Shown one piece after another: positions 4,813 to 33,860 of a stretch of 45,713 nt of DNA (positions are counted from its first letter, which is position 1; every line of letters begins with the position of its first letter). Made by a program: the position numbers and the translations under genes. Under the pieces are notes generated by a model. That model made no database searches and was not told the DNA's origin. It saw only the letters and a list, made by a program, of their open reading frames with translations. This DNA comes from a virus, in UHGV virus genome UHGV-0265688, one strand, 5' to 3'.

Positions 4813-5102
4813 GGACATACTACTCTGACTATATCCAGCACTGCATGAGATTTTATGCCAGACACCCTAACCCGAAGTTTCGTTCTGACGCTGATAAGCA
4901 GAACTGGTACGCCTGTGAACACGCTCTAAAGGGTTTCGCTGACGCTGACAGGGACATTCTGCTGTTTATCTACCGGGAGGGTGATACCATTCCTGATAAT
5001 GTTTACAGGGTGTCTGTGCAGAAAAACATCAAGCAGGACAAGATTTGGGCTTTGGTAAACGAGTTGGAGCGCAAAATTGCAAAAAGGAGGAGCCTGATTT
5101 GA
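4809..5102 (+). CDS. hypothetical protein
   Basis: ATGA-coupled ORF. Its stop TGA overlaps the TTG start of the primase. Confidence 0.4.
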   Translation: MRTYYSDYIQHCMRFYARHPNPKFRSDADKQNWYACEHALKGFADADRDILLFIYREGDTIPDNVYRVSVQKNIKQDKIWALVNELERKIAKRRSLI

Positions 5103-5887
5103 CACGATACGAGAACATACCCGAAGAATTGAAAAGGTTGAATCAATGGGTCTGTACTCGCAGTGACAGCAAGGTTCCGATGAAAGCGTTTGAGCGGGAA
5201 GCCGCTTCCTCCACCAATCCAGAAACATGGTCTTCCTTCGACACGGCTCTCAAGGCTGTGTCGGAGGGACACTATGACTACTGCGGGTTCGTCTTTAACG
5301 ACAATGGTTATGTGGGAATTGACATAGACGATGGCTACGATCAGGACGGGTTTCTGTCCCCGCTGGCGGCTGAAATCATAGGGTTGTGTGAAAGCTACAC
5401 CGAGAAGTCCAAGAGCGGTAGGGGCTTTCACATTCTCCTTAAAGGGACACTCCCTTTTAAGGGAAAAAACAACCTCGCAGGAGTGGAGATTTACAAGGCG
5501 GCTCGGTACTTCATCATGACTGGCGATACGCTCTTATATGACACCATTGAGGAAGACCAAGGTGCGATTGACTATGTGATAGAGAAGTTCTTTCCCGAAA
5601 CCAGAGAGGAAAAAGACGGGGAGCGGTACGGAGGTCGGATTTATTCACCGATATGGGCATGGCCTGAGAACAACCGAATCAAACTTCGTCCCGTTTATCC
5701 CCGGATTCCAGACGGGAGCAGAAATATCTGTCTGACCTCGCTGGCGGGTATGTTACACAATCAGGGTTACAGCAAGCAACAGATTTACGATGAACTTCTG
5801 TATGCGAACATGGTAGCCTGTGACCCGCCCCTTGACCGAAATGAGATTAGAACTATCTGCAACAGCGTCACCCGATACAAAAGATAG
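5099..5887 (+). CDS. DNA primase, prim-pol (bifunctional primase/polymerase N-domain) plus PriCT_1 C-terminal domain
   Basis: TTG start 5099, 6 nt after AAGGAGGAG, TTGA-coupled to the previous stop. Motifs GFVFNDNGYVGIDIDDG, SKSGRGFHIL, GVEIY..RYFIMTG (prim-pol). GSRNICLTSLAGML (PriCT_1). The track's TTG 5045 start lacks an RBS. Confidence 0.6.
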   Translation: MTRYENIPEELKRLNQWVCTRSDSKVPMKAFEREAASSTNPETWSSFDTALKAVSEGHYDYCGFVFNDNGYVGIDIDDGYDQDGFLSPLAAEIIGLCESYTEKSKSGRGFHILLKGTLPFKGKNNLAGVEIYKAARYFIMTGDTLLYDTIEEDQGAIDYVIEKFFPETREEKDGERYGGRIYSPIWAWPENNRIKLRPVYPRIPDGSRNICLTSLAGMLHNQGYSKQQIYDELLYANMVACDPPLDRNEIRTICNSVTRYKR

Positions 5888-5926
5888 GATATAACACGAA
5901 AAAGATAAAAATTATTCCCACAAGGG

Positions 5927-5955
5927 TTGACAAACAATCTTTTTCGTGTTATTAT
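5927..5955 (+). promoter_or_regulatory. sigma70-type promoter TTGACA-N17-TATTAT driving the mazF-dam-thyX block
   Basis: TTGACA 5927-5932, 17-nt spacer, TATTAT 5950-5955, in a 120-bp AT-rich gap. Flanking sequence is homologous to the promoter region at 11395-11500. Confidence 0.55.
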
Positions 5956-6006
5956 CTAATCACAAAAGGACAATAAATTGTCTTAATTAGATTGGGAGGT
6001 AATTTT

Positions 6007-6474
6007 ATGGTTCAAGAATATTGCCGGGGAGACATTTTCTTCATCACAGAAGGTACATACACTGGCTCGGAGCAGAGCGGCGGCAGACCCGGTGTTATCG
6101 TCTCGAACGATCTCGGCAACAAGCACTCGCCCAATGTTGAGGTTGTATTCCTCACCTCACGAGAAAAGAAGCCCATGCCGACCCATGTAGAGGTGCTGTG
6201 CAAAGTTCCGTCTACTGCGCTCTGCGAGAACATTCAGACGGTCTCAAAAGAGCGACTGGACACTTTTATCCGCTCTTGCACTACGAGTGAAATGAAGAAC
6301 ATCGACCATGCGCTCCTGTGTTCGCTCGGTCTTCACGCTCCTGCGGCTGTCGGGGGGGGGACTCAGGTTTCCGCTTCTCCTTCGACAGAGGTTTCAAAGG
6401 CCGAAATCGAGCGGGATTTGTTCAAGAATTTGTATGAACAGCTTTTAGACAAAGTGATGGTGAATAAACCTTGA
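6007..6474 (+). CDS. mazF: MazF/PemK/EndoA-family endoribonuclease toxin with ~45-aa C-terminal extension. No adjacent antitoxin.
   Basis: ATG 6007 after GGGAGGTAATTTT. GDIFFI...GSEQSGGRPGVIVSNDLGNKHSPNVEVVFLTS...PTHVEV...IQTVSKERLDTF closely parallels B. subtilis EndoA/NdoA. Extension begins at a G9 tract (6352-6360). Confidence 0.75.
   Translation: MVQEYCRGDIFFITEGTYTGSEQSGGRPGVIVSNDLGNKHSPNVEVVFLTSREKKPMPTHVEVLCKVPSTALCENIQTVSKERLDTFIRSCTTSEMKNIDHALLCSLGLHAPAAVGGGTQVSASPSTEVSKAEIERDLFKNLYEQLLDKVMVNKP
6352..6360 (+). repeat. G9 homopolymer at the junction of the MazF domain and its C-terminal extension
   Basis: ggg ggg ggg encodes GGG in AAVGGGTQ. Long mononucleotide tract. Candidate slipped-strand or sequencing-error hotspot. 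Confidence 0.6.
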
Positions 6475-6485
6475 ACACTGATGTA

Positions 6486-6936
6486 ATGTTTAGTAGCAAA
6501 ACCGATGATTGGGCAACACCACAAGATTTCTTTGACAAATTGGATTTAGAATTTCAGTTCACACTCGACCCATGCGCCGATCTTCATAACCACAAGTGCG
6601 CTCGGTATTACAACCGGGAGCAGGACGGTCTATCTCATGATTGGGGGGGAACGAGTATTCTGCAATCCCCCATACGGAAAAGAAATCGCAAAATGGGTTC
6701 AAAAATCTTTTGAGGAAAGTCGTAAGAAAAACACGCTCGTGGTTATGCTCATTCCAGCAAGAACTGACACAAAGTATTTTCACGACTTCATATACGGGAA
6801 GGCCGAGATAAGATTCATTCGTGGGCGGTTAAAGTTTGGAAATGCGAAAACCGCCGCTCCCTTCCCCTCCATGGTCGTGATATTCAGAAATGAGGAGGAT
6901 TCCAATGACAGTAACACTCATACAGGCAACGCCTGA
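6486..6936 (+). CDS. dam: Phage Dam-type DNA N6-adenine methyltransferase, interrupted by a frameshift at a G7 tract (6643-6649). Intact ~155-aa reading frame if the tract were G6.
   Basis: Frame A: MFSSKTDDWATPQDFFDKLDLEFQFTLDPCA...SHDWGG. Frame B (+1): ERVFCNPPYGKEIAKWV...LVVMLIPARTDTKYFHDF. NPPY catalytic motif. Removing one G yields SHDWGERVFCNPPYG. Start could also be TTG 6471. Confidence 0.6.
6643..6649 (+). repeat. G7 homopolymer at the dam frameshift point
   Basis: ttggggggga. The two halves of the methyltransferase are in frames 0 and +1 on either side. Confidence 0.6.
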
Positions 6937-7525
6937 CCCCATCGAAACCATTGCGAAAATCGCAAGTATCTGCTATGACAGCGACCCCAAGAACCCGCTC
7001 GGACTGGTGAAACACCTGTACCGCAATGGACATCACAGTGTCTTTGAACACATCTATTTTACCTTCAAAATCGAGGGTATCTCTCGTGCCTGTTCTCACC
7101 AGCTCGTGCGGCACCGGCACTGTAGTTTCACTCAGAGGTCTCAGAGGTACTGTTCCGAGGACGGTTTCAAAGTCGTGTGTCCCGGCACTGTCGTTGCCAT
7201 GGGTGGGCAGTATGACTACGGAGCCGTAGTGAATCGTATCTCAGAGTTTTACGAAGAAGCTCAACAAGTCGGTATTCCCAACGAGGACGCAAGGTACATT
7301 CTCCCCAACGCCTGTGAGACCTCGATGTATCTCTCCTGCAACTTGAGAGAGCTTATTCACATGGCGAACGAGCGACTGTGCATGAGAGCGCAGTGGGAAA
7401 TCCGGGAGCTGGTACAACAGATGGTCTACTGTGTGAACGCTGACCTGTGGTTCATGCTGGTTCCCAAGTGTAAGAGCGGTCGTATTATCTGCAATGACCC
7501 CTGTGGGAAAGTAGGTGCTTTGTGA
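6905..7525 (+). CDS. thyX: Flavin-dependent thymidylate synthase ThyX
   Basis: RBS GAGGAGGA then ATG 6905. HHSVFEH and the RHR...S..Q.SQRY ThyX signature (QLVRHRHCSFTQRSQRY). Start overlaps the dam 3' end. Confidence 0.8.
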   Translation: MTVTLIQATPDPIETIAKIASICYDSDPKNPLGLVKHLYRNGHHSVFEHIYFTFKIEGISRACSHQLVRHRHCSFTQRSQRYCSEDGFKVVCPGTVVAMGGQYDYGAVVNRISEFYEEAQQVGIPNEDARYILPNACETSMYLSCNLRELIHMANERLCMRAQWEIRELVQQMVYCVNADLWFMLVPKCKSGRIICNDPCGKVGAL

Positions 7526-7683
7526 TGGACGAAGGCAATAAAATCTGCCCTCTCTTTTACGCTTCTTCGGAGTGTAACACTCTAAAGGCTTGTGAGTGCC
7601 AGAAAGAGAGATGCGCATGGTGGGTTGAGGATAAACAGAAATGCGCTATTGCAGTAGGAGGTGAACGCAGTCGTGGCAAGTGA
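7525..7683 (+). CDS. 52-aa Cys-rich small protein (MDEGNKICPLFYASSECNTLKACECQKERCAWWVEDKQKCAI...)
   Basis: ATG overlaps the thyX stop (TGATGG). Seven Cys. Below the ORF-track cutoff. 3' end overlaps the primase-helicase start region. Confidence 0.3.
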   Translation: MDEGNKICPLFYASSECNTLKACECQKERCAWWVEDKQKCAIAVGGERSRGK

Positions 7684-9196
7684 TAGAGAGCTTTTTGAAC
7701 TCCGCAACGGAAGGGTTATCATGGACGAAGACCTGTCCGAAAAAATGTATATCATCAAGTCATATCACCCTGAGAAAGCCGATGAAACCAGTTCCGGGTT
7801 TGAATGGTCGGAAATGGGCATGGCAAACCTGTTTGGTATGCTCTACAACCGGGAAGCCCGATACTGCACAGAGCATAAGAGCTGGTACACCTACTTCGAG
7901 GGCGCATGGCGCAAAGACGAGGGGGCAATCCTTGTCTCTGAGAAAATCAAGGACTTTGTGCGGCTGATGATTCTCTACTGCGGGGAGATCGTGGACGATG
8001 AAATCCGAAAAGCCTACACCTCTTTTGTGAACAAAATGGGTGACAGGCGCATGAGGGACAGAATACTCAAAGACGCTACAGGCGAGCTTCGTATCTCTGC
8101 CACTGAGTTTGACGCTGACCCATACCTTATAAACTGTCTGAACGGCACCTACTCCCTCCGGGATTTTTCTTTTCGGGAAGCTAAGTGGGACGATTTTCTC
8201 ACCATGCAGACCAATTTTCGTCACACTGTCCGCAGGGACATCAAGTGTGAACGGTGGGAGCAGTTTATTGACGAAGTTACACAGGGCGATAAGGACAAGG
8301 CCGATTTCCTACAACGCTCCCTTGGTTATTCTATCCTTGGTATGAGCAATGAGGAGTGTATGTTCATTCTTCATGGTAAAACGACCCGTAACGGAAAATC
8401 CACCTTGCTCAACACCATTGAAACCATGCTTGGTGATTACGCCAAGGTTGCACCTGTCGGTATGATCTGCCGGGGAGACAGGCAGAAGGACGCAGAAGCG
8501 GCTTCCCCTACCCTTGCTGGTCTAAAAGGCAAGCGGTTTGTTACCATGTCGGAAAGCAATGAGTACGGTAAACTGGACGAGGAGAAAATCAAGCATTTTA
8601 CAGGCGGTGAAGAAATTTCAGCTCGTGCGCTGTACCAGTCAGCAATCACTTTCAAACCGCAATTTACGCTCTGGCTTTCCTGTAACGACCTGCCCATGGT
8701 GACAGACAAGAGCTTGTTCGCTTCGGAGCGTATCAAGGTTATTGAGTTTAACCGGCACTTCTCCCCCGCCGAGCAGGACACGCACCTTAAAGACGAGCTT
8801 ACTTCTCAGGAAGCCATGAGCGGTATCTTCATGTGGCTGGTGCGTGGGTACATCAAGTACAAAGAGCATGGGCTTACCATGTCGGAGCCGCTAAGGTCTG
8901 TCGTGGCAAGGTATGAGCGAGACAATGACCTTGTGCTCCAATTCCTTGAAAACCGCTGTGTACGGGTTCCAGAGGAAGAATACAACCCGCTTGGTGAGAA
9001 GAATAAGTGGACAACTATCAGAGCCAAAGACCTCTACCAAGCGTTCAAAATATGGGCGAAATCCGAGGGTGCTTATGTACTCTCTGCAAGAAAATTCAAC
9101 TCTGAAATGGAGCGTCACCCTGAGTGGTTTGACCGCAAATCGACTTCCAGCGGTTTCGTAATCTATTGGGGCTTGAAGCTCAAGGAGATAGTGTGA
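7661..9196 (+). CDS. Phage/plasmid primase-helicase, P4/D5 family (D5_N plus SF3 P-loop NTPase)
   Basis: Walker A ILHGKTTRNGKST, Walker B-like VTMSES. Typical D5 C-terminal region. Start ambiguous (GTG 7661/7673 after GGAGGTG, or ATG 7721). Confidence 0.75.
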   Translation: MNAVVASDRELFELRNGRVIMDEDLSEKMYIIKSYHPEKADETSSGFEWSEMGMANLFGMLYNREARYCTEHKSWYTYFEGAWRKDEGAILVSEKIKDFVRLMILYCGEIVDDEIRKAYTSFVNKMGDRRMRDRILKDATGELRISATEFDADPYLINCLNGTYSLRDFSFREAKWDDFLTMQTNFRHTVRRDIKCERWEQFIDEVTQGDKDKADFLQRSLGYSILGMSNEECMFILHGKTTRNGKSTLLNTIETMLGDYAKVAPVGMICRGDRQKDAEAASPTLAGLKGKRFVTMSESNEYGKLDEEKIKHFTGGEEISARALYQSAITFKPQFTLWLSCNDLPMVTDKSLFASERIKVIEFNRHFSPAEQDTHLKDELTSQEAMSGIFMWLVRGYIKYKEHGLTMSEPLRSVVARYERDNDLVLQFLENRCVRVPEEEYNPLGEKNKWTTIRAKDLYQAFKIWAKSEGAYVLSARKFNSEMERHPEWFDRKSTSSGFVIYWGLKLKEIV

Positions 9197-10457: not shown

Positions 10458-10563
10458 AAGTAGTTAAAGTAGTTCAAATCTTGAATTTGCGTAAAAGTCC
10501 TCTATAAGGGGGTCTATATAGTAAAAGTTTACGCAAAAACCGATTTTTAACTACTTTAACTAC
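10458..10563. repeat. Copy A of a ~110-bp palindromic element. Terminal inverted repeats AAGTAGTTAAAGTAGTT / AACTACTTTAACTAC. Inner inverted repeat TTTGCGTAAAAGT / ACTTTTACGCAAAAA around a TATA-rich centre.
   Basis: Near-identical terminal repeats recur at 15009-15117 and 37783-37891. A and C also share the flanking ATAAGAAnAAGAAGAA. Contains a plausible TTGAAT-N16-TATAAG promoter. Confidence 0.7.
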
Positions 10564-10633
10564 GCAATAAGAATAAGAAGAAAGAGGACTCTTTCGGCTC
10601 GAAAAGAGGACTCTCAGAGGAGGTAAAACGACT

Positions 10634-11236
10634 ATGGCAGTGAAGAAAAACGCCGATGGTGAGAACAAGCCGCAGGTGATTAAGAAGAAGCCGAGGGGCG
10701 GTAACTCCCCTGTGATTGGTATGAATGGGTACGATTTAGAGCCGGGTGATAATACGAAGTATTTGCAAAACTCCATGCACCTGATGAACTTACCCGACAT
10801 TGATTTGCATGATGTGGAGCAAGTGACAAATCGACTGAATGAGTATTTTGAGTTCATGGCTTCCAGTGATATGAAACCTACGGTTTCTGGTATGGCATTG
10901 GCGTTGAACGGTATGAGCAGACGGACTTTGATTGCTATTGTGAACGACTATGCCACTGGTGGGTCTGGATATAAGACTGCGTTGCCGCAGGAAGTGGCAC
11001 TCGTTATTAAAAAAGCCTACAGAATTATGGAGGTTCTGTGGGAGAACTACTCTCAAAACGGCAAGATCAATCCCGTCATGGGTATCTTCCTCGGCAAGAA
11101 CAACTATGGCTATCAGGACAAGACCGAATATGTTGTCACTCCGAATGTTCAGCAGGACAACGACTATGACCCCGACTCTATCAGACAGCGATACCTTATC
11201 GACTCTGACAGCGACTCCGACTCTGACAGCGACTAA
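10634..11236 (+). CDS. terS: Terminase small subunit (Terminase_2 family) with C-terminal (SD)n tail
   Basis: RBS AGAGGAGGTAAAACGACT then ATG. HTH segment SGMALALNGMSRRTLIAIVNDY. PVMGIFLGKNNYGYQDKTEYVV matches the TerS hallmark (..IFLLKNNFGY.DK). DSDSDSDSDSD tail from an 18-bp tandem repeat at 11202-11234. Confidence 0.75.
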   Translation: MAVKKNADGENKPQVIKKKPRGGNSPVIGMNGYDLEPGDNTKYLQNSMHLMNLPDIDLHDVEQVTNRLNEYFEFMASSDMKPTVSGMALALNGMSRRTLIAIVNDYATGGSGYKTALPQEVALVIKKAYRIMEVLWENYSQNGKINPVMGIFLGKNNYGYQDKTEYVVTPNVQQDNDYDPDSIRQRYLIDSDSDSDSDSD

Positions 11237-11432: not shown

Positions 11433-11461
11433 TTGACAATTCGGAAAAGCTGAATTATACT
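11433..11461 (+). promoter_or_regulatory. sigma70-type promoter TTGACA-N17-TATACT for the cargo operon
   Basis: TTGACA 11433-11438, 17-nt spacer, TATACT 11456-11461. Flanked by AAACAATCC(A/G)AAAAAGAT direct repeats. Homologous to the 5890-5995 promoter region. Confidence 0.55.
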
Positions 11462-14215: not shown

Positions 14216-14431
14216 ATGGCAGTTTTGAACGATATTGAAATTGATGTGAAGACCCTGTGTGTGCAGAACCGCACCACTCAGGAGCAAATCGCAAAGGCTG
14301 TTGGCACAACGGGTCAGTATGTCAACCGGGTCATTCACAAAGAGGACGGTCTTATCAATCGCACCTTCATCAACATCATGGAAGCTCTTGGTTACGACAT
14401 CAAACTGACTTATGTTCCACGAGAACCGTAA
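14216..14431 (+). CDS. XRE-family helix-turn-helix DNA-binding protein
   Basis: RBS AAAGGAGGATTTTTCG then ATG. HTH-like TTQEQIAKAVGTTGQYVNRV. Confidence 0.5.
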   Translation: MAVLNDIEIDVKTLCVQNRTTQEQIAKAVGTTGQYVNRVIHKEDGLINRTFINIMEALGYDIKLTYVPREP

Positions 14432-14437
14432 CAGGAG

Positions 14438-15019
14438 GTGAGCCACATGAAGGTGGGGTATGTGCGGGTGAGCACCGTTGAGCAAAACCTTGCCCGGCAG
14501 TTGGAGCTGATGAAGACCCTCGGTGTGGAGAAAATCTACTGTGATAAAATGAGTGGGAAAAACACTGAGCGCACTGAGTTTAAGGAAATGATGGAGTTCC
14601 TGCGGGAGGGTGACACCCTGTATGTGGAGTCCTTCTCCCGGCTTTCCAGAAGCACCCTCGACTTCTTAAACACTGTGAGCAAGTTACAGGCCAAGAGCGT
14701 GAATCTTGTGTCCGACAAGGAAAAGATGGATATGTCCACTCCGCAAGGTAAGTTCATGGTGACGGTGTTTGCCGCACTCTCCGAGCTGGAACGAACCAGT
14801 ATGCTTGAGAGACAGCGGGAGGGAATTGAGATTGCCAAGGCCGAGGGGAAATACAAAGGGCGAAAACCCATTCCCGCCAATGAAAAGTTCTTTGCGGTGG
14901 CAAATGCTTGGGCGGGAGGTAAGATCGCTCTCAAAGACGCAATCCGGGAGTCTGGTATGTCCTCCTCCACTTTCTTTCGCAAATGTAAGCAGTATGAAAT
15001 CAGCAAAAGAAGTAGTTAA
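14438..15019 (+). CDS. Small serine recombinase (resolvase/invertase family, N-terminal catalytic domain plus C-terminal HTH)
   Basis: RBS CAGGAGGTGAGCCAC then ATG. VGYVRVSTVEQ catalytic-Ser motif, SRLSRS, C-terminal HTH. Its TAA stop lies inside the terminal repeat of element B. Confidence 0.75.
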   Translation: MSHMKVGYVRVSTVEQNLARQLELMKTLGVEKIYCDKMSGKNTERTEFKEMMEFLREGDTLYVESFSRLSRSTLDFLNTVSKLQAKSVNLVSDKEKMDMSTPQGKFMVTVFAALSELERTSMLERQREGIEIAKAEGKYKGRKPIPANEKFFAVANAWAGGKIALKDAIRESGMSSSTFFRKCKQYEISKRSS

Positions 15020-15117
15020 AGTAGCGGAAAATCAGGTTTTGCGTGTAACTTCCTCTTAGTATGTGCATATATAGCAAAAGTTTACGGAAAAATTGAAAAA
15101 CAACTACTTTAACTACT
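15009..15117. repeat. Copy B of the ~110-bp palindromic element (GAAGTAGTTAAAGTAG ... AACTACTTTAACTACTT)
   Basis: Same 15-17-bp terminal inverted repeats and inner TTTGCGT / ACGGAAAAA arms as copies A and C. Interior more diverged. Overlaps the recombinase stop codon. Confidence 0.7.
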
Positions 15118-15135
15118 TGATGGGAGGGAAACGCC

Positions 15136-15711
15136 ATGGGGCGATACGATAATTTTCACAACACCAAGAATATTGAAAAGGCGCAGAAAAAGCTCGACAA
15201 GCTCATGAGCAAGCGAAAGCCCGACCAGTATCAAATTGATCTGGCAAGGGAAGCTCTCGACAATGCGAAATTGTTTGAAAGCTGTCAGATTTTTAAGAGC
15301 TTCAACGGTCGTGCGCCGAATGAGAACATCATGTTTAGTGACGATAACCGAGTGATATGGTTCATCAAGTATCTCATTCCCTATGACGAAATCACTTCGT
15401 ATTCTATCGTGGAGAATGTGGTACAAAAAGCTCAAACCCAGACCAAGAGCAAAGGCGTTATCTCACGAGCTATCATCGGAGGAGCGATTGCAGGTGGGGT
15501 TGGTGCGGTCGTTGGGGCGGCTTCTGCGGGGTCACAGTCTCAAACAACCTACTACACCGAGGGCGAAGGATTCTTCCTGCAAATTTTCACCAAGGGCGGA
15601 GACCGATATAGCTGTCATATCGAAAGTGACGGTTTTATTTCAAACAAAGTACACCCGAAATGGCTTGAGCTTGGAACGAAGTTGCAATCCATCATTGACG
15701 GGAAGGTGTAA
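15136..15711 (+). CDS. hypothetical protein with Gly/Ala-rich hydrophobic segment (AIIGGAIAGGVGAVVGAASAG)
   Basis: RBS GGGAGGGAAACGCC then ATG. Sits between element B and terL. Confidence 0.45.
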   Translation: MGRYDNFHNTKNIEKAQKKLDKLMSKRKPDQYQIDLAREALDNAKLFESCQIFKSFNGRAPNENIMFSDDNRVIWFIKYLIPYDEITSYSIVENVVQKAQTQTKSKGVISRAIIGGAIAGGVGAVVGAASAGSQSQTTYYTEGEGFFLQIFTKGGDRYSCHIESDGFISNKVHPKWLELGTKLQSIIDGKV

Positions 15712-15723
15712 AATTGATTTAGA

Positions 15724-15777
15724 ATGGCGCATGATTGCGAGAGCGTAATGCTCAAACGGTCAAGCGCCATTTTCTTT
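15724..15777 (+). promoter_or_regulatory. Leader hairpin R1 upstream of terL: TGGCGCatgattgcgag...caaGCGCCA then TTTTCTTTT (terminator/attenuator-like)
   Basis: Shares the 16-nt core GGCGCATGATTGCGAG and the upstream AAAATT..T.GA context with the hairpin at 17541-17600. Confidence 0.5.
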
Positions 15778-15787
15778 TGGAGGTATT

Positions 15788-17428
15788 ATGCGAAAGTTAC
15801 TTGAGACAATTTTTGAAAAAATCAAAAAGAGCCATGAGTACCAGTCTATGGAAGACCTGTACTACATGAGCAAGGAAGCCATGAAAACCGACAACGGTCT
15901 TGGTGTAGAGTTTTTGAAACTCCTCTCTGCTGAGTGTGAGAGAGTCATGCGTGACAGGTCTATATCCGGGGAACAGGTGCGGCTGGTTTATGATTTGCAC
16001 AGGCGAGTTTGTCTTACTGCCGCTCCTTACGATTTTGACTGCTATCTGCTCTATGTGGAATGGAACCGGGAGCCCGACAAGAAGTTTTACCCTCCCCGCC
16101 GTAAGGTTTTGAAGCAGGTGGTGGACGCTCTGCAAGAGCTGGCAGACGATAAGCTGGATTTGTTGGCGGTCTCTCTCCCACCGGGCGCAGGAAAAACCAC
16201 TTTGGCTATCTTCTACCTCACATGGCTCGGCGGGAAAATCCCCAATGACCCAATGTTGACCGGCTCGCACTCCAACAGCTTTGTACGAGGGGTGTACGAT
16301 GAATGTCTGCGCATATTTGACCGCAACGGAGATTATCTGTGGCACGATGTTTTTCCCGACATCAAAGTGTCCAACACCAACGCCAAAGACTGCCGCATTG
16401 ACCTTGACAAGAGACAGCGTTTTGAGACCTTGGAGTTCACCTCCATCGGAACCGGCAATGCTGGTCTGTATCGTGCGGCTACTCTGCTCTACTGTGACGA
16501 TCTGGTGTCGGGTATTGAAGTCGCATTGTCAAAAGAGCGTCTGGATAAGCTGTGGGAAACCTATACCACTGACCTTCGACAGCGTAAAATCGGAGACCAC
16601 TGTAAGGAGCTTCACATTGCAACCCGTTGGTCTGTCCACGATGTCATTGGTCGGCTTGAGCGGGAGTATATCGACAGTGACCGGGCAAAATTCATTGTGA
16701 TTCCCGCTCTTGATGAAAACGATGAATCCAATTTTGACTACGCTTATGGCGTGGGGTTCAACACAACATTTTACCATGAGCAGAGGAACATCATGGACGA
16801 TGTGAGCTGGCGAGCACTGTATATGAACGAGCCGATTGAGCGTGAGGGCTTGGTTTATGCACAAGACGAGCTTCGCCGTTACTTCGAGTTGCCGAAGGAA
16901 GACCCTGACGCAATCATCGGTATCTGCGACACCAAGGACAAAGGAGCGGACTACGCTTTCCTGCCGGTGGCGTATGTGTATGGGCAGGATTATTATATTG
17001 ACGATTGCGTGTGCGACAATGGGCTACCCAACATCGTGGACGCTCGGCTGACGGAAATCCTTGTGCGAGACAAGGTGAAATCCTGCCGGTTTGAGTCTAA
17101 TTCCGCTGGGCGGCGGGTCGCTGAGAAGATACAGGAGGAAGTGAAGAAAAAAGGCGGTATCACGCACATCACTACCAAATTTACCACCGCCAACAAGGAA
17201 ACGAAAATCATCGTAAACAGCGCATGGGTCAAGGAACACTGCCTGTTCAAAGACGCTTCTCTCTACCAGCGGAAGTCAGACTACGGCAAGATGATGGATA
17301 TGCTCTGCTCTTACACAATGGCTGGTAAGAATAAGCATGATGATGTTCCCGATGGAATGGCAATGCTGGCTGAATATGCCCAAAGCCTGAGCGGACAAAA
17401 GGTGGAAGTTTTCAAACGACCTTGGTAA
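15788..17428 (+). CDS. terL: Terminase large subunit
   Basis: RBS TTGGAGGTATT then ATG. Walker A LPPGAGKTTLAI. C-terminal nuclease-like region. 546 aa. Confidence 0.8.
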   Translation: MRKLLETIFEKIKKSHEYQSMEDLYYMSKEAMKTDNGLGVEFLKLLSAECERVMRDRSISGEQVRLVYDLHRRVCLTAAPYDFDCYLLYVEWNREPDKKFYPPRRKVLKQVVDALQELADDKLDLLAVSLPPGAGKTTLAIFYLTWLGGKIPNDPMLTGSHSNSFVRGVYDECLRIFDRNGDYLWHDVFPDIKVSNTNAKDCRIDLDKRQRFETLEFTSIGTGNAGLYRAATLLYCDDLVSGIEVALSKERLDKLWETYTTDLRQRKIGDHCKELHIATRWSVHDVIGRLEREYIDSDRAKFIVIPALDENDESNFDYAYGVGFNTTFYHEQRNIMDDVSWRALYMNEPIEREGLVYAQDELRRYFELPKEDPDAIIGICDTKDKGADYAFLPVAYVYGQDYYIDDCVCDNGLPNIVDARLTEILVRDKVKSCRFESNSAGRRVAEKIQEEVKKKGGITHITTKFTTANKETKIIVNSAWVKEHCLFKDASLYQRKSDYGKMMDMLCSYTMAGKNKHDDVPDGMAMLAEYAQSLSGQKVEVFKRPW

Positions 17429-17482
17429 TTCACAATTTCCACCGAGTTTTCAACAAATAATTCTTAAAATAAGAACCACAAC

Positions 17483-17511
17483 TTGACTTTTGAGAATTGA
17501 AATGCTATAAT
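17483..17511 (+). promoter_or_regulatory. sigma70-type promoter TTGACT-N17-TATAAT upstream of the portal gene leader
   Basis: TTGACT 17483-17488, 17-nt spacer, TATAAT 17506-17511. Followed directly by hairpin R2. Confidence 0.55.
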
Positions 17512-17540
17512 ATATGCGAAAAATTATAGTTTGAGTTTGG

Positions 17541-17600
17541 CGCATGATTGCGAGTATAGCGAAAGCCTTACGAACAGTCATGCGTCTTTTTATTTTCGAG
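17541..17600 (+). promoter_or_regulatory. Leader hairpin R2 upstream of portal: GCGCATGAttgcgag...cagTCATGCGT then CTTTTTATTTT
   Basis: Same GGCGCATGATTGCGAG core as R1. Stem partner changed in a compensatory way (GCGCC in R1 versus TCATGCG in R2). Confidence 0.5.
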
Positions 17601-17617
17601 GAAAGGAGGGAGCAATC

Positions 17618-19078
17618 TTGGGAAATGTGATCGACACCTCAAAGCCGGTGAGCAAAACCCGGCAAATGAGCGGCAGACGGGTTATCAAGTCCAGCGTGAA
17701 GGAGATTACCAACGAGAATGTGGTTACGGTTTTGCAGAAAGCACTCAACGACCACGCTCTCAACCGCAGTGAGATTGATTACCTGTGGAAGTACTACAAG
17801 GGCGAGCAACCCATTCAGAATCGGACAAAAGAAGTCCGTCCCGAAATCTGCAACAGGATTGTGGAGAACCGGGCGAACGAGATTGTTTCCTTTAAGGTCG
17901 GTTATCTCTGCGGAGAACCTATCCAGTATATCGGCAGGAGCACCGAGGAAAGCGTCACCGCTGGTATTACGGCTCTCAATGAGCTGATGTTCGCCGAGGA
18001 CAAGGCCACGCAAGACCAAGAGATTGTGGAATGGCAGATGATTTGCGGAACCGCTTTCCGCTTGGTGTTACCCGATGAAGCAGACGATGAAGACGAGTCC
18101 CCGTTTGAAATGTACACGCTCGACCCCCGTGACACCTTCATAGTGTACTCCAATGAAATCGGGAACAAGCCGCTGATGGCGGTAAAGTACAGCAAAGACG
18201 AGGACGAGGTAACGCACTATTCCGTTTACACCGAGAACTACTACTGGCTGATTGATGGGGACATCATCAATCGGGAGGAGTCCAAGGCTCACGCTCTGGA
18301 CATGATTCCGATTTTTGAGTACCCGGCGAACAACGCTCGGCTCGGCTCTTTTGAGATTGTCCTTCCCCTTCTGGACGCAATCAACAACACTGAGTCCAAC
18401 CGTATGGACGGTGTGGAGCAGTTCATTCAAGCGTTCTGGAAATTCATCGGTTGCCACATCGAGAAAGAGAAATTCAAAGAATTTCTTGCGGAGGGAGCCA
18501 TTCTCGTGCCGCCTAACGACAATGGCGGCAACATTGATGTTGACCTCGTTGTAAAGGAACTGAATCAGGGGCAGACGCAGACGCTCAAAGACGATCTGTA
18601 CAACGCTGTTCTCACCATCTGCGGTATGCCCAACAGAAACGGCGGCAGTTCTACTTCCGACACCGGGGCGGCGGTGCTCCTGCGTGATGGCTGGTCGCTT
18701 GCGGAAGCGAGGGCAAAAGACAGCGAGCATATGTTCAAAAAAGCCGAAAAGAAAATGCTCAAGCTGGTTCTCCGTATCTGCCGAGACCTGTCTGACATCA
18801 ATCTCCGCTTGAAGGACATCGAATTGCAGTTTACCAGACGCAATTACGAGAATATTCAGAGCAAGTCTCAGGTGTTGGTGTCCATGCTACAGCAGTCGAA
18901 GATTCACCCTCTGTTGGCGTTCCAGCACAGCGGCCTATTCGTAGACCCGGAGAGGGCGTACACCATGAGCATGGAGTATTACGAGGAACAGCAGGAAAAG
19001 CTGGCGCAACAGCAGATGGCGGCGCAGAACAACCCGAACAATCCGAAAAACCCGGACAGTTCGGACGAAGACGAATAA
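17618..19078 (+). CDS. Portal protein (SPP1 gp6-like)
   Basis: TTG 17618 five nt after AAAGGAGGGAG. The track's ATG 17531 would read through the leader hairpin. Size and position after terL. C-terminal acidic tail. Confidence 0.7.
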   Translation: MGNVIDTSKPVSKTRQMSGRRVIKSSVKEITNENVVTVLQKALNDHALNRSEIDYLWKYYKGEQPIQNRTKEVRPEICNRIVENRANEIVSFKVGYLCGEPIQYIGRSTEESVTAGITALNELMFAEDKATQDQEIVEWQMICGTAFRLVLPDEADDEDESPFEMYTLDPRDTFIVYSNEIGNKPLMAVKYSKDEDEVTHYSVYTENYYWLIDGDIINREESKAHALDMIPIFEYPANNARLGSFEIVLPLLDAINNTESNRMDGVEQFIQAFWKFIGCHIEKEKFKEFLAEGAILVPPNDNGGNIDVDLVVKELNQGQTQTLKDDLYNAVLTICGMPNRNGGSSTSDTGAAVLLRDGWSLAEARAKDSEHMFKKAEKKMLKLVLRICRDLSDINLRLKDIELQFTRRNYENIQSKSQVLVSMLQQSKIHPLLAFQHSGLFVDPERAYTMSMEYYEEQQEKLAQQQMAAQNNPNNPKNPDSSDEDE

Positions 19079-23318: not shown

Positions 23319-23755
23319 GTGAATCGCTGTCCTCCACTGAGGGGAGTGGTGGTAGTTCTGCCACTGCTCCCCTCTCCACTTACACGGAAAAATTCAACGA
23401 GTTGTTTCCCCATTACCTGTCCTTCGGCATGACCGAGGAGCAGTATTGGGATAAAGATTGTACGCTTGTGGCGGCGTACCGTAAAGCGGAAGAACTCAGA
23501 ATGAATCGCAGAAATCAGGAAATGTGGCTACAAGGCGCATATTTCTATGACGCTCTGTGCCGGGTATCTCCTATTCTTCACGCTTTCGCCAAAAAGGGCG
23601 CAAAGCCTGTGCCGTATCTTTCGGAAGCCTACGCGCTTACTGAAAAACAGGTGGAACTCCGACAGGAGGAACACGCCAAGGGGGTGTACGACAAGGGCAA
23701 GAAACTGATGGAAGGGTTCATGGCAAGCCACAATAAAAAGTTTGAAGGGAAGTGA
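22989..23755 (+). CDS. Tail assembly chaperone G-T fusion produced by -1 programmed frameshift at 23288-23294
   Basis: The downstream ORF (23312-23755) is in the -1 frame, overlaps the G stop, and is read continuously after slippage on G GGA AAC. Confidence 0.6.
23288..23294 (+). promoter_or_regulatory. -1 programmed ribosomal frameshift slippery heptamer GGGAAAC (X XXY YYZ in the G frame)
   Basis: Zero-frame codons are gag|gga|aac, so the heptamer is correctly phased. Conserved G-T arrangement upstream of the tape measure. Confidence 0.65.
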
Positions 23756-26700
23756 GCATTATGTCTACCACAATCGAGCAGTTGGAGCTTGAAATACAAT
23801 CTAATTCTACATCTGCCGTTGGCGGGATAGACGCACTTTCCGAGTCTCTGAGACGGTTGAAAGCCGCTACCGCTCCTGTAAGCAAGGGCGGCGTTGGGCT
23901 TGGCGCACTGTCTAACTCTTTGAAGAAATTCAGCCAGAGTGTTTCTGGTTTGACCGGGCTTACTCTTGCAAGGGAGCAGGTGCAAGGGCTTGTAGACGCT
24001 CTCAAGCCTTTAGAGAGCGTTCAAAAATCCGGGTTCAATTCTCTGGCTTCCGGGCTGGATAAGCTCGTAAAAATTGCTCCGCAGATTGACACTGTTACAG
24101 AATCGCTGAAAAAGACTGACCTTGATTCTTTCGCAGACCAGTGCAATCGGGTTGCTACCGCTATCACCCCTCTTGCCACTCAGATGGAGAAGGTGGCGGC
24201 TGGTTTCTCTGCCTTTCCTGCCAAGATTCAGAGGTTGCTCAAGGGGAACACGAACCTTGCCGCAAGCAACACTGTGTTGGGCAAGTCCTATGTGAACCTC
24301 GCCGCAAAAATCAGTGCGGCTTACATCGGGCTGAAATCCATCACGAGCGTTATTGCCGGGTGGATTACCGCTTCAAACAGCTACATCGAAAACCTCAACC
24401 TGTTCAATGTGTCCATGGGGCAGTATGCAGAGGAAGCCCGAAATTACGCAGAGCAGGTCGGAGAAGTTATGGGTATCAACCCCGGCGAGTGGATGCGCAA
24501 TCAGGGTGTCTTTATGACAATCACTGAGGGCTTCGGCGTTGCGAGCGACCGGGCTTACACCATGAGCAAAAACCTCACCCAGCTCACCTACGATTTGGCT
24601 TCGTTCTTCAATATCAGCACCTCTGACGCTTTCCAGAAGTTGGAGTCTGGTATCTCCGGTGAGCTTGAGCCGCTTCGTAGGCTTGGTTACGACCTATCTG
24701 TGGCTCGTCTGCAACAGGAAGCATACAACCTTGGCATTGAGAAAAGCGTTACGGCAATGACTCAGGCTGAAAAAGCCGAGTTGCGCTACTACGCAATCAT
24801 GACGCAGGTTACAAACGCACAGGGCGATATGGCTCGTACACTGGAAGCCCCGGCAAACCAGCTTCGTATTCTGCAAGCTCAGGTGGAACAGGCCACTCGT
24901 GCGCTGGGTAATCTGTTCCTTCCCATTCTGAAAGCTATTCTGCCGTATGCAATCGCTCTGGCGAAAGCAATCCGCATGGTCGCTGAAATTATTGCCGGTT
25001 TCTTCGGTGTCTCGATTCCTGAGTTTGACATGGGGACAGACGCAATCGGCGGCGTAGCGAGCGGCGCAGGTGAAGCGGCTGACGGTTTGGGAGACGCTTC
25101 CAAAAAGGCAAAAGAGCTGAAAAACGCACTGCTCGGTATTGACGAGCTGAATGTTATCTCTCCCCCGGAGGATTCCAGTGGCGGTGCCGGTGGTGCTGGT
25201 GGCATTGGCGGCGGGGGCGGTCTTGGCTTTGAGCTTCCCACCTATGACTTCATTGCAGACGCAGTGAACGAACAGGTTGACAAGATCATGGCGAAAATTC
25301 AGCCCTTCCTCGATTGGGTAAGGGAAAACATTGATGAAATCCTTGCAGGTGTGCTCGCTGTTGGTGCGGCGTTCCTTGCTTGGAGAATCGCCAAGAGTGT
25401 ACAGGACTTCCTGCGGTGGCTGTCCACCATGAAGGGATTTAACATCACAGGTAGTATTGCTTTCAAAATTGCGGGGCTTGGCCTGTTCTTGGACGCATGG
25501 AACACCATGAAGGAAGCCATTCAAGACATCATGGCGAACGGCCCCAACTTCACCAATGTTACCAAGCTCATGAGCGGTTTCGCAGAAGCCCTCGGAGCGG
25601 CGTTCCTGCTCTTTGGCAATATCAAAATGGCGGGAGCTATGTTGGTTATTTCCGGGCTTACAGGTATTGTCTCCGCTATCAGCGACATGGTGAACAACGG
25701 TGTGAATTGGGACAATGCGCTCTTTCTGGTGAAAAACCTCGGCCTGTTCCTAAGTGGGCTGGGTATGCTGACAGGAAACACAAAGCTGGCTGGCATTGGT
25801 CTGATTATCAGCGGTGCTACGCTCATTGTGGACAACCTTAAAGGATTCCTTGAAGCAATCAGAACCGGCGATTGGTCGAATGTCAACATGGTGGAGGTTG
25901 CCGCTGGTGCGCTCATGCTGGTCGGTGGGTTTATCCTCACTCTCAAGAAACTGGACGCACTGAAAGACAGCGCAACCGCAGGTCAAGCGGCAAAACAGGC
26001 ACTTGAAACGGTAACTGACACAACCTCCAAAATCGACACTACAGTCAGCACCGGCCTTTCTCCCAAGCTCACTTCTCTGGCGAAAAACCTTGGGTTGGGT
26101 CTGGTAGTCATAGCGGAAGTCACAGCGGCGGCACTGCTCATTGTAGGTGCAATCGCACTGCTCGGTATGGAACTGGAACAGGTCGGTATTGCTTGGGAAC
26201 CTGTCATTGCCAATGGTGAGACGGTTGCAATCGCAATCGGTCTTGGTGCGGCGATCTTGGGCGCAGTCGGTTTAGCCGCTTATGCCCTCGGTACAGGCGG
26301 TGCGACCATTGCGCTGAACATCGGTATCGGTACTGCCATTTTGCTTGAACTCGGTGTAGCCGCTGGACTGTTCATCGTTGAGATATGGGCTATCGGTAAG
26401 GGCTTGGACGAAATCGGTCAGGCATGGCAACCTGTTCTGGATAACGGAGAAGCTATTGCAACCGCTATTGGTATCGGCACTGGTCTACTGGTCGGTATCG
26501 GCGTTGTTACGGCGGCTCTCGGCGTGGCTACGGTTGCTTCGGCGGGTCTGTTGCCTTTGGCTATCGGGCTTGGTACAGCTCTGCTTGTGGAGCTTGCGGC
26601 GGCATTTATCCTCTTTGTGGAAAGTCTGGTCGCTGTAGCGGACGAGCTGAACTATCGGCTCGACCCGCCTTTGATGGCGTTGAACGAAAAGCTCCCCGGC

Positions 26701-28092
26701 TTGTCCAGCAATATGAGCGATTTCGTTGACTTCATGACGGAGTTTGCGGGACAGGTGGTGCGGTACACAGAGGTGTCCGCTATCGCTGGCCTGAGCGCAA
26801 CGATTGACACCATCATCGGCTGGTTTACGCAAGACCCTATTGAGAAGCTGGCAAGTGATGTGGAGAATATTTCCGAGCAGACCTCCAACCTCAACGACAA
26901 GCTGGCAATCGCTGTTCCTGAGTTGCAGACTGCCGCAGACCTGTTGCAGGAATATAAAGACCTCCTGACGCAGATTGAGAACCTGTGTGACAGCAATGTG
27001 GAGCTATCCACTGGTATGTTTGTCAACATGAAGGAGGTCGGACAGAGCCTTGTAACCGGCTTTGTGGACGGTATTCAGTCGAAATCCGGGGACTTCAAAA
27101 ATGCGGCGAGGGATTTGGTAGAGGGCTTCAAGACACAGCTCACCAGCAGTGCCGAGACCTGCCGCTCCACCATGACCGCTTGGGCTTCTAATGTAAAGAA
27201 CTGGTTCACGCAGAGCAGTTACGGCGCAATCAACCGTACCACCTTCCAGAACTACGCAAAAGATGTGGTGTCTGGCTTCGCTTCTGGTATCACCAGCTTC
27301 TACAATAGCTCAAAATCGAGCGTCACCACATGGGCTTCCAATGTGAAGCAGTGGTTTACTGGAAGCGGCTATGGTGCGGTAAACCGTACCACCTTCCAGA
27401 ACTACGCAAAGGACATCGTAAGCGGTTTTGGTAGCGGCGTTACCAGCTCCTACAATAGCTCAAAGTCCAGCATTACTTCTTGGGCTTCCAATGTGAAATC
27501 GTGGTTCAGCGACATTGCTTCCCGCAGTGCGTTCTACGAAATCGCAAGGGATGTTGTGAACGGTTTTAACTCTGGTATCAACGACCTGTACTACACCTCC
27601 CGCCGCTATATGCGTGAGTGGGCAAATGACGCAATCGCCGCATTTAAGTCTGAATTGGATTCCAATTCTCCCTCCAAGGTGTTCGAACGCATTGGCGGGG
27701 ACACCGTTCTTGGCTACAACAACGGGATTACCACTCTTGGAAAGACCACCAAGGGTGTTGTGGACAGTTGGGCAAACTCCTTCACCAGCGTAAGCCCTGT
27801 CATGCGGTTTGCGGTAGACACCTCCGCTCTCAAATATTACACCAGTGATTCGTTCGCCAAGTCGGTATCTGCCGATGTAACAAGCAACCGCAATCTCTCT
27901 GTCACCGGCTTTGAGGAGTGCATGAAGGAGTTCTACAAGGAGTATGTCGAACCCACGCTGTCTCAGATGGCAGACGATATGCGCCGACAGGCTGATAAAA
28001 ACGAGCAGACCATTGTTCAGATCGGCAACCGCACTGTCACTGACGCTGTAACCACTCAGCGCAAAGCCAACGGTTATGAGTTCGTGAAGTAA
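23752..28092 (+). CDS. Tape measure protein (1446 aa)
   Basis: Coiled-coil N-terminal part, multiple transmembrane/Gly-Ala-rich segments, C-terminal tandem ~50-aa repeats. Canonical position. Confidence 0.8.
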   Translation: MSIMSTTIEQLELEIQSNSTSAVGGIDALSESLRRLKAATAPVSKGGVGLGALSNSLKKFSQSVSGLTGLTLAREQVQGLVDALKPLESVQKSGFNSLASGLDKLVKIAPQIDTVTESLKKTDLDSFADQCNRVATAITPLATQMEKVAAGFSAFPAKIQRLLKGNTNLAASNTVLGKSYVNLAAKISAAYIGLKSITSVIAGWITASNSYIENLNLFNVSMGQYAEEARNYAEQVGEVMGINPGEWMRNQGVFMTITEGFGVASDRAYTMSKNLTQLTYDLASFFNISTSDAFQKLESGISGELEPLRRLGYDLSVARLQQEAYNLGIEKSVTAMTQAEKAELRYYAIMTQVTNAQGDMARTLEAPANQLRILQAQVEQATRALGNLFLPILKAILPYAIALAKAIRMVAEIIAGFFGVSIPEFDMGTDAIGGVASGAGEAADGLGDASKKAKELKNALLGIDELNVISPPEDSSGGAGGAGGIGGGGGLGFELPTYDFIADAVNEQVDKIMAKIQPFLDWVRENIDEILAGVLAVGAAFLAWRIAKSVQDFLRWLSTMKGFNITGSIAFKIAGLGLFLDAWNTMKEAIQDIMANGPNFTNVTKLMSGFAEALGAAFLLFGNIKMAGAMLVISGLTGIVSAISDMVNNGVNWDNALFLVKNLGLFLSGLGMLTGNTKLAGIGLIISGATLIVDNLKGFLEAIRTGDWSNVNMVEVAAGALMLVGGFILTLKKLDALKDSATAGQAAKQALETVTDTTSKIDTTVSTGLSPKLTSLAKNLGLGLVVIAEVTAAALLIVGAIALLGMELEQVGIAWEPVIANGETVAIAIGLGAAILGAVGLAAYALGTGGATIALNIGIGTAILLELGVAAGLFIVEIWAIGKGLDEIGQAWQPVLDNGEAIATAIGIGTGLLVGIGVVTAALGVATVASAGLLPLAIGLGTALLVELAAAFILFVESLVAVADELNYRLDPPLMALNEKLPGLSSNMSDFVDFMTEFAGQVVRYTEVSAIAGLSATIDTIIGWFTQDPIEKLASDVENISEQTSNLNDKLAIAVPELQTAADLLQEYKDLLTQIENLCDSNVELSTGMFVNMKEVGQSLVTGFVDGIQSKSGDFKNAARDLVEGFKTQLTSSAETCRSTMTAWASNVKNWFTQSSYGAINRTTFQNYAKDVVSGFASGITSFYNSSKSSVTTWASNVKQWFTGSGYGAVNRTTFQNYAKDIVSGFGSGVTSSYNSSKSSITSWASNVKSWFSDIASRSAFYEIARDVVNGFNSGINDLYYTSRRYMREWANDAIAAFKSELDSNSPSKVFERIGGDTVLGYNNGITTLGKTTKGVVDSWANSFTSVSPVMRFAVDTSALKYYTSDSFAKSVSADVTSNRNLSVTGFEECMKEFYKEYVEPTLSQMADDMRRQADKNEQTIVQIGNRTVTDAVTTQRKANGYEFVK
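27187..27560 (+). repeat. About 2.5 tandem copies of a 150-bp (50-aa) repeat inside the tape measure gene (WASNVK.WF...NRTTFQNYAKD.VSGF.SG.TS.YNSSKSS)
   Basis: Nucleotide units start at 27190, 27341 and 27491 with high identity. Confidence 0.7.
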
Positions 28093-33780: not shown

Positions 33781-33785
33781 GGGGG

Positions 33786-33808
33786 TGTGGGGGATTTCCT
33801 CCCCCACA
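33786..33808 (+). other. GC-rich hairpin immediately downstream of VR (TGTGGGGGA-tttcc-TCCCCCACA)
   Basis: Perfect 9-bp stem 6 nt after the tail-fiber stop. DGR target sites commonly carry such a hairpin/cruciform downstream of the initiation-of-mutagenic-homing region. Confidence 0.55.
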
Positions 33809-33860
33809 TAAGTGGGCGAACACACCGTATTGAAAATCGAAACACGCTAAGGCGAACAGT

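Follow-up and report, generated by a model that had tools for sequence, protein, structure and literature searches.

In this study, which was based on a window of 45,713 nucleotides (nt), i.e., the whole of the viral genome UHGV-0265688, and on a comparison with related phage loci, we describe two homologous hairpins, R1 and R2, that bracket terL and stand directly ahead of the ribosome-binding sites (RBS) of terL and of the portal gene. Both hairpins occupy fixed positions among the relatives of this temperate siphovirus-like phage, their stems are maintained by compensatory changes on the transcribed strand and are followed by a U tract, and R2 lies just behind a conserved promoter. From these features, we propose that R1 and R2 may act as intrinsic-terminator gates that would need antitermination, a reading to which we give an even chance of being correct.

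Two homologous hairpins ahead of terL and the portal gene

The two hairpins and the genes that they precede have the following window coordinates:

15721–15778, plus strand: R1, terminator-type hairpin and U tract (by folding; covariance-model match of 66.1 bits, E 3e-13)
15726–15737 with 15757–15768: stem P1 of R1
15741–15744 with 15750–15753: stem P2 of R1
15770–15778: U tract of R1
15779–15783: RBS GGAGG of terL
15788–17428, plus strand: terL (phrog_38, E 1.5e-61), bracketed by R1 and R2
17537–17596, plus strand: R2, second hairpin copy and U tract (by folding; covariance-model match of 56.2 bits, E 6e-11)
17539–17550 with 17575–17586: stem P1 of R2
17555–17571: region that contains the weak, variable P2 of R2
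17587–17596: U tract of R2
17603–17609: RBS AAGGAGG of the portal gene
17618–19078, plus strand: portal gene of the SPP1 type (PF05133, E 3e-103), TTG start at 17618, leading the long late operon behind R2

R1 and R2 can be aligned over approximately 80 nt and share one layout, i.e., a 12-bp stem (P1), a variable upper stem (P2), a U tract and then the RBS. R1 lies 10 nt past the stop codon of the open reading frame (ORF) 15136–15711 and 9 nt ahead of the terL ATG. The original prediction, which a model had made from the sequence alone, described homologous leader hairpins with a T tract before the RBSs of terL and the portal gene, and both the alignment and the folds agree with it. When the two leaders were folded, as it had suggested, each formed a long hairpin, with energies of −26.8 kcal/mol for R1 (z −3.5) and −26.3 kcal/mol for R2 (z −1.8; centroid hairpin −24.6 kcal/mol); the minus-strand folds were weaker than those of the sense strand. 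The identical core was confirmed, with a length of 17 nt rather than the 16 nt given earlier (TGGCGCATGATTGCGAG, at 15725–15741 and 17538–17554). It had no third match in the window, even with three mismatches allowed, and, with the covariance model, no hairpin beyond R1 and R2 was found there (third-best match, 14.6 bits). A 12-mer at 15306–15317 that resembles the 3′ arm has no partner; it was judged to be a chance occurrence and not an orphan arm.

The 5′ arm, GGCGCATGATTG, is identical in R1 and R2. The 3′ arms, CGGTCAAGCGCC in R1 (15757–15768) and CAGTCATGCGTC in R2 (17575–17586), are homologous and pair in the same register, and the differences between the two stems are all one-sided (A·A versus A-U, G-C versus G·U, U·G versus U-A). 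The earlier claim of a different 3′ partner in each copy, which had been taken as covariation, therefore did not hold. Genuine compensatory changes are absent between the two window copies and became visible only in the comparison with relatives.

Occurrence among related phages

A TerL search of IMG/VR gave 80 loci in which TerL was 78–100% identical, and both intergenic regions were extracted from all of them without reference to the motif. A site was counted as occupied when a stem of at least nine uninterrupted pairs was followed by a T tract. The site 5′ of terL was occupied in all 76 loci that were readable there, and the spacer between terL and the portal gene in 77 of 77 (73 with an uninterrupted stem and four with a single mismatch). 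Both sites were also occupied in the distant phages L173 and L184, whose TerL is 38% and portal protein 48–51% identical. A covariance search in related phages had been proposed as a check, and the motif is indeed conserved at both sites. A scan with the 17-mer found the motif in approximately 60 contigs, while exact 17-mer matches in high-GC contigs and in Proteobacteria lay in unrelated coding sequence and were rejected by the covariance model. In a GenBank-derived phage collection, at a TerL identity of approximately 40%, the element was absent from Clostridium phage Maintenon, the only cultured phage that was found and checked, and from two uncultured faecal phage contigs. Genome matches place the group in metagenome-assembled genomes of Clostridia from animal and human guts (Oscillospiraceae, Candidatus Neochristensenella, Ruminiclostridium and Avilachnospira). 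A scan against Rfam 15, at the gathering threshold and also with E up to 10, had no match at R1 or R2; among the sub-threshold matches, ctRNA_p42d scored best, with 20.5 bits against a threshold of 50. Neither the motif sequence nor stem-loops at terL or the portal gene were found in the searchable literature.

The hairpin is not restricted to its two usual places. In L082 and L143, a promoter and then a hairpin stand ahead of the first gene of a replication-type operon. In L173, a promoter followed by a hairpin precedes terL, and in L140, the promoter and hairpin downstream of terL are followed by an inserted phosphoesterase-like gene and then by the portal gene. Similarly, in L184, the hairpin is upstream of an inserted gene ahead of terL or the portal gene. 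These other contexts point to a function that is general to transcription units and not specific to packaging.

In L082 (1–7784) and L143 (4500–14394), the operon belongs to an integrative, satellite-like element inside a phage-like contig. This element encodes a tyrosine integrase, a small arginine-rich protein, an Xis/AlpA-like helix-turn-helix (HTH) protein, a primase-like protein of 592 amino acids and a terS-like protein. It contains the hairpin twice, behind its own promoter and before a tape-measure gene that is 48–53% identical to that of the window.

Covariation, strand and terminator anatomy

The stem was assessed in two alignments. In the first, of 73 distinct copies, which was made with MAFFT independently of the covariance model, P1 was 99.3% paired and had changes on both sides at nine of its 12 pairs. 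In the second, of 102 distinct copies fitted to the covariance model, P1 was 99% paired with double changes at 10 of the 12 pairs, and P2 was 91.6% paired with covariation at all four of its pairs. Sliding the 3′ partners by one to three columns, as a control, lowered the pairing to 30–45%. The clearest case of covariation is that of four full base-pair swaps that separate R1 of type A (GGCGCAUGAUUG/CAGUCAUGCGCC) from R1 of type B (GGUGCGUUAUCG/CGGUAACGCACC). Moreover, in the type-B phages, P1 of R1 and P1 of R2 differ at four pairs and the structure is retained in both. That the hairpins are a conserved RNA structure, as was originally predicted, is thus borne out by the covariation among the relatives and not by the comparison of R1 with R2.

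The strand was determined from the mismatches that the stem tolerates: 217 G·U cells were found as opposed to 7 A·C cells, which means that the complementary strand cannot form the same stem and that the structure belongs to the sense transcript. A U·G wobble at columns 12–60 was present in 89 of the 102 copies.

As in an intrinsic terminator, the GC-rich stem of all 102 distinct copies is stable and leads directly into a U-rich tract on the transcribed strand. The 8 nt after P1 contain 6.1 T on average (range 4–7, hence never fewer than four), the mean hairpin energy is −26 kcal/mol and the base of P1 is GGCGC/GCGCC. The remainder of the hairpin is less constant. The sequence and the length of P2 and of the internal loop differ between copies, some of which lack them altogether (R2 of L028 has no internal loop), the spacing of the arms ranges from approximately 7 to approximately 40 nt, and the short variants without P2 (L097, L131 and L171), with a 13-bp stem and a loop of approximately 7 nt, are textbook terminators. 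The constant part is P1 with the U tract, and this is the anatomy of an intrinsic (Rho-independent) terminator. Additionally, the 5′ arm of P1 is identical between phages whose TerL is only 38% identical; judged from the aligned copies, this conservation of sequence is far beyond what a terminator requires. Three further roles were considered and rejected: the alignment shows no tandem G·A pairs of a K-turn, no reading frame of a leader peptide is conserved and the CCUC in P2, which could have had an anti-Shine-Dalgarno role, is not conserved.

The promoter, leader and control region at R2

The interval between terL and R2 contains the following features, to which the copies of a palindrome found elsewhere in the window are added:

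17429–17477, plus strand: control region 5′ of the promoter, with phased DnaA-box-like repeats and a degenerate palindrome
17429–17434, 17436–17442 and 17447–17455: DnaA-box-like repeats TTCACA, TTTCCAC and TTTTCAACA
17459–17477: degenerate copy AATTC-N9-GAAyy of the palindrome AATTC-N9-GAATT
17483–17511, plus strand: near-consensus sigma-A promoter, with the −35 element TTGACT (17483–17488), a 17-nt spacer, TG (17503–17504) and the −10 element TATAAT (17506–17511)
17512–17536, plus strand: AU-rich leader that contains a −10-like TATAGT (17525–17530)
11438–11456, 39957–39975, 39991–40009 and 40113–40131: palindrome AATTC-N9-GAATT

The promoter had been described as a perfect TTGACT-N17-TATAAT; it is present at 17483–17511 and has 11 of 12 consensus matches, which is short of perfect, as well as the TG of an extended −10 element. 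Transcription would start near 17518, which would place the hairpin at about +21 in the window, and the terminated RNA is predicted to have approximately 75–80 nt. The promoter was found in 54 of 55 distinct spacers, and L016, the one left unscored because the hairpin pattern missed it, shows the same promoter. The distance from the −10 element to the hairpin was 28–35 nt in 52 of the 54 distinct spacers, and the hairpin accordingly starts at approximately +21 to +28. Two promoter classes, each with its own conserved spacer motif, exist among the relatives. The order of promoter, hairpin, T tract and gene at R2, which was part of the original prediction, is conserved across all 77 of the terL-portal spacers examined. 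Between 22 and 37.8 kb of the late region, no other plus-strand promoter had more than 9 of 12 matches, the total of matches being approximately that of shuffled sequence, and no convincing plus-strand terminator was found there. The R2 promoter is the only strong sigma-A promoter that was found ahead of the portal-to-lysis operon of approximately 20 kb. Taken together, the promoter and R2 look like a single entry gate to the late operon.

The leader that would be transcribed is AU-rich, variable and only approximately 21–28 nt long. No conserved alternative pairing of it was seen by eye in folds of at least 90 sequences, which were made without a consensus fold of the leader. Because a leader this short and variable leaves little for an antiterminator structure, classical attenuation (riboswitch, T-box, RAT or leader peptide) is unlikely. 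The arrangement therefore fits the earlier suggestion that the late genes are controlled by attenuation or antitermination, with the former, in its classical forms, being disfavoured.

In the relatives L018–L067, three or four phased repeats, approximately 11 nt apart, stand right after the terL stop codon. These match the DnaA-box consensus TTWTNCACA (perfect TTTTCCACA or TTATCCACA) and are degenerate in the window. The palindrome AATTC-N9-GAATT lies within or adjoins three consensus promoters in the window: two in the immunity region, which contains three copies, by the putative repressor gene 39512–39958, and one at 11.4 kb, in whose spacer the remaining copy is located. In relatives, a copy is also found just 5′ of the late −35 element. 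The palindrome probably serves as the operator for the phage repressor or Cro and, since an operator-like palindrome is shared, the R2 promoter is probably also under repressor control.

Proposed mechanism and the search for a factor

In the proposed mechanism, a polymerase that starts at the late promoter would by default make the RNA of approximately 75–80 nt and would then stop at R2. The late genes would be expressed once the polymerase has been made resistant to termination, as at lambda PR′-tR′ with Q or at AlpA-dependent promoters. R1 would gate the transcripts that enter terL from the variable cargo region in the same way, and the P1 hairpin itself would be recognised by a phage or host factor. 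Two considerations lead to this proposal. A consensus promoter and a strong terminator ahead of approximately 20 kb of essential genes are sensible only if termination is overridden in time. Moreover, as classical attenuation is unlikely, either processive antitermination or no regulation is left. Recognition of the hairpin by a factor is suggested by the conservation of the P1 sequence together with the near-invariant U·G wobble. Termination at the hairpins, its override and the recognition of P1 are all deduced from the sequence and its comparison.

A more specific version is that the hairpin may be at once a terminator and a nut-like recognition site for an antitermination factor of Oscillospiraceae/Clostridia phages or of their hosts. 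Binding at the invariant AU-U·G-YR-GC core of P1 would then turn stop into go at terL and at the late operon, and the satellite-like elements of L082 and L143 would carry the hairpin in order to eavesdrop on the factor. We regard this version as possible but doubtful.

Several observations weigh against terminator gates that need antitermination. The PHROG and Pfam scans of approximately 50 window ORFs, many of them unannotated, gave no match to the Q, N, NusG/LoaP, RinA or ArpU families. Generic antitermination needs no conserved terminator sequence, and the conservation of P1 thus takes an extra assumption. R1 is mostly without its own promoter, which means that a factor that is loaded at the promoter cannot explain both sites. 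The operator of the repressor type by the R2 promoter in relatives may make the gate less necessary, as silencing in the lysogen could be achieved there. Finally, −10-like hexamers (at least five of six matches) were found in 18 of 38 leaders compared to 12.1 ± 2.7 in shuffled sequences, which is a weak enrichment of the element that would induce a sigma-dependent pause in a module of the Q type.

Scans against PDB sequences of the early, middle and late ORFs also gave no antiterminator. Compared to a module of the Q type, the strong promoter and the close terminator ahead of the late operon are present, and no Q-family protein was found among the ORFs scanned. Signals of the N/nut or put type do not match either, the element being a single hairpin with a U tract and without an Rfam family.

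The one candidate that was named in the original prediction is a sigma-like ORF:

41057–41485: sigma-like ORF (AlphaFold pLDDT 82; sigma domain-2 fold, no region 4)

Its sigma-like nature was supported, as the best-ranked Foldseek matches were nearly all sigma factors aligned on domain 2 (every E-value was at least 0.1) and one homologue is fused to a Sigma70_r4_2 domain. Possible identities are a sigma factor that is split or truncated and a protein that binds RNA polymerase. The family, of approximately 129 amino acids, is found in Oscillospiraceae prophages (Neglectibacter and Acutalibacter). The proposed link to R1 and R2, however, was not sustained: the 52 IMG/VR loci with this ORF, on 51 contigs, do not overlap with the set of more than 100 contigs that bear hairpins or a related terL, at least 10 of which are 43–58 kb long. 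The ORF and the hairpins are thus not inherited together; the ORF belongs to another early module, which is mosaic, and was rejected as the cognate factor.

Alternative explanations

The alternative that survives best is that R1 and R2 are unregulated, constitutive elements, i.e., partial terminators that set the ratio of terminase to structural proteins and/or stabiliser or RNase processing hairpins that segment a long transcript. Repeated, mutually homologous processing hairpins are an established precedent in phage T7, and RNase III sites are known from T7 and from lambda sib. The intercistronic hairpins adjoin RBSs, P1, the internal loop and P2 stack to approximately 20 bp in most copies, which resembles a substrate of RNase III, and no regulator was found. 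However, the variants of L097, L131 and L171 still occupy the site but, with 13 bp, fall short of the length of a classical RNase III substrate, conservation does not extend to the internal loop and the U tract, which processing sites do not need, is invariably retained. Furthermore, unless it were overridden at times, a strong terminator directly after the only late promoter would make a wasteful arrangement. On balance, we consider constitutive elements plausible but less likely than gates.

The second alternative is that of recombination linkers, in which promoter/terminator cassettes at the module borders would aid the exchange of terL, the cargo slot and the head module. This has real support: mosaic breakpoints fall at R1 as well as at R2. 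In 21 of 65 pairs of loci whose terL is at least 95% identical, the sequence 5′ of R1 could not be aligned. The portal gene of L042 is 98.8% identical to those of L009, L013, L014, L016 and L017, while its terL is only approximately 85% identical to theirs. In the L009 lineage, R2 has become a nearly complete copy of R1, the two hairpins being identical from base two of the core up to and including the fourth T of the tract, which shows that conversion between the sites has occurred. A precedent is offered by PeSL in T4-type phages (PMC4122927, PMC2839356). Recombination, however, needs identity and not pairing, and it leaves the compensatory changes, the U·G wobble, the strand asymmetry and the U tract unexplained. 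In the type-B phages, the four pairs at which P1 differs between the sites run counter to it as well, the structure being kept, and breakpoints at gene boundaries are expected in phages anyway. From the comparison of loci, linkage for recombination would be at most a second role of the hairpins, and as their explanation it is improbable.

It is more improbable still that R2 is the gene of a trans-acting small RNA of approximately 75–80 nt, with R1 as a copy in a 3′ untranslated region. A consensus promoter and a terminator do bracket a short transcript without an ORF, and the layout of the promoter-R2 unit resembles that of the lambda 6S and oop RNAs. Nevertheless, the leader, the loop and P2 are variable and the paired stem alone is conserved, which is the opposite of what is expected for a seed-driven small RNA; R1 and most of the copies other than R2 have no promoter, and no complementary target was found in the window. 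Lastly, a signal at the DNA level (a pac or terminase-binding site, as the original prediction had offered as an alternative, or a cruciform or operator for a dimeric protein, which is very unlikely from the aligned sequences) can be practically dismissed even though the palindromic arms TGGCGCATGA...TCATGCGCCA flank the packaging gene terL, because the G·U and A·C counts and the weaker minus-strand folds make the element strand-specific (a nearby 108-bp element is, by contrast, symmetrical on both strands), its arm spacing varies from approximately 7 to approximately 40 nt and changes affect the two arms jointly even though the genome retains a copy that differs.

The region upstream of R1

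The features upstream of R1, together with the further copies of one of them, are the following:

10458–10565, 15010–15118 and 37783–37891: three copies, in the same orientation, of an imperfect palindrome of approximately 108 bp
10634–11236: terS-like gene
14216–14431: HTH protein of 71 amino acids
15136–15711, plus strand: variable cargo ORF of 191 amino acids, between the palindromic element and R1

The cargo ORF has a homologue in only 16 loci, and many relatives have unrelated sequence in its place; in most phages, R1 lacks a promoter of its own. The cargo ORF, directly 5′ of R1, is not recognisable as terS; the terS-like gene is the one at 10634–11236. The copies of the 108-bp palindrome (outer arms AAGTAGTTAAAGTAGTT/AACTACTTTAACTAC, inner arms TTTTTGCGTAAA) are located ahead of the terS-like gene, ahead of the cargo ORF and R1, and past the end of the late operon. 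Beyond the window, 52 of the 80 related loci have the palindrome 5′ of terL, at variable distances (−484 to −2373). Both of its strands fold equally well, which makes it a DNA-level element, and the adjacent small serine recombinase or the 71-amino-acid HTH protein may have its site there.

Of the 80 related loci, 69 encode a homologue of the HTH protein 5′ of terL, and the protein was considered as a candidate regulator. Its recognition helix, TTGQYVNR, carries single substitutions at most (L047, L019 and L080), whatever the promoter or P1 type. A helix that is near-invariant shows no specificity signal toward R1 or R2, and the protein was therefore rejected as the hairpin factor; more probably, it pairs with the equally invariant 108-bp palindrome.

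Other features of the window

The window also encodes an amidase endolysin and a large serine integrase, and it contains a diversity-generating retroelement (DGR) at 31846–35193:

37943–39388, minus strand: large serine integrase
33651–33766: variable repeat of the DGR, at the 3′ end of ORF 31846–33780
33865–33980: template repeat of the DGR, 83% identical to the variable repeat
34012–34099: RT-17/RT-18 RNA of the DGR (Rfam)
34096–35193: reverse transcriptase ORF of the DGR (RVT_1)

The primase/helicase gene is apparently split (5045–9196) into an N-terminal part (5045–5887) and a C-terminal part (7661–9196), between which a MazF-like ORF (5992–6474), a DNA methylase fragment (6637–6936) and a thymidylate synthase ORF (6890–7525) are located. 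The tape-measure ORF (23752–28092; 1446 amino acids) contains three tandem repeats of 150 nt (27166–27508) that are 73–77% identical.

Significance and comparison with known systems

Almost nothing is known about how the temperate phages of gut Clostridia (Oscillospiraceae, Christensenellales and Lachnospiraceae), which are abundant and uncultured, control their late genes. The motif offers a handle that can be searched for by sequence, with approximately 58 model positions, strong covariation and two fixed positions, one of which is coupled to a promoter, and the element merits an Rfam entry. If R1 and R2 are indeed antitermination gates, they would represent a new late switch for Gram-positive phages and would point to a further factor. 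If they are only a fixed attenuator or a linker, they would still be a marker of the start of terL, of the start of the late operon and of module borders in this phage group.

Mobile elements often couple terminators with processive antitermination (PMC8191782, PMC11658703, PMC9371919). The closest parallels are lambda PR′/6S/tR′/Q and the switches of the AlpA type (PMC9371919, PMC7969949), in which a strong promoter of the sigma-70 type and a close intrinsic terminator also have the whole late operon behind them; the conserved promoter spacer and flanks in our phages could likewise be a loading site. However, the terminator here is approximately 21–28 nt from the start compared to 194 nt in lambda, it is conserved in both sequence and structure and is duplicated at a second site without a promoter, the hosts are Clostridia and no protein of the Q or AlpA families was found here. 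The lambda N/nut (boxB) and HK022 put systems are similar in that there are two homologous hairpin copies per genome in operon leaders, with compensatory changes from copy to copy and from phage to phage. Unlike R1 and R2, nut and put are not terminators and have no U tract, and neither a boxA-like motif nor an N-like protein was found here. The conAn2 RNA of pLS20 (PMC8191782), canT of Tn916 (PMC11658703) and EAR come from Firmicutes mobile elements with long operons whose terminators have to be read through. Those RNAs, though, are antiterminators (conAn2 has approximately 260–600 nt) that are located 5′ of generic terminators, whereas here conservation concerns the terminator itself, and an RNA of that kind would not fit into the short R2 leader.

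The PeSL cassettes of T4-type phages (PMC2839356, PMC4122927) also consist of a repeated promoter and stem-loop at the borders of variable genes, with the junctions being breakpoints. They are present in many copies in hyperplastic regions, with a terminator and then an early promoter, whereas here two fixed sites flank a core gene, the order at R2 is promoter and then stem-loop, and the strong covariation indicates selection on the RNA. The RNase III sites of T7 are likewise mutually homologous, intercistronic hairpins with an internal loop just 5′ of RBSs; in T7, however, there is no obligatory U tract, and in our phages the internal loop and the upper stem are dispensable. As terminator gates in the control of phage late genes, the elements would thus be of a known kind. 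Judged from the sequences compared, their form is new: a terminator that is conserved in both sequence and structure, duplicated at two fixed sites and, at R2, positioned approximately 25 nt from the predicted transcription start, in phages of Clostridia.

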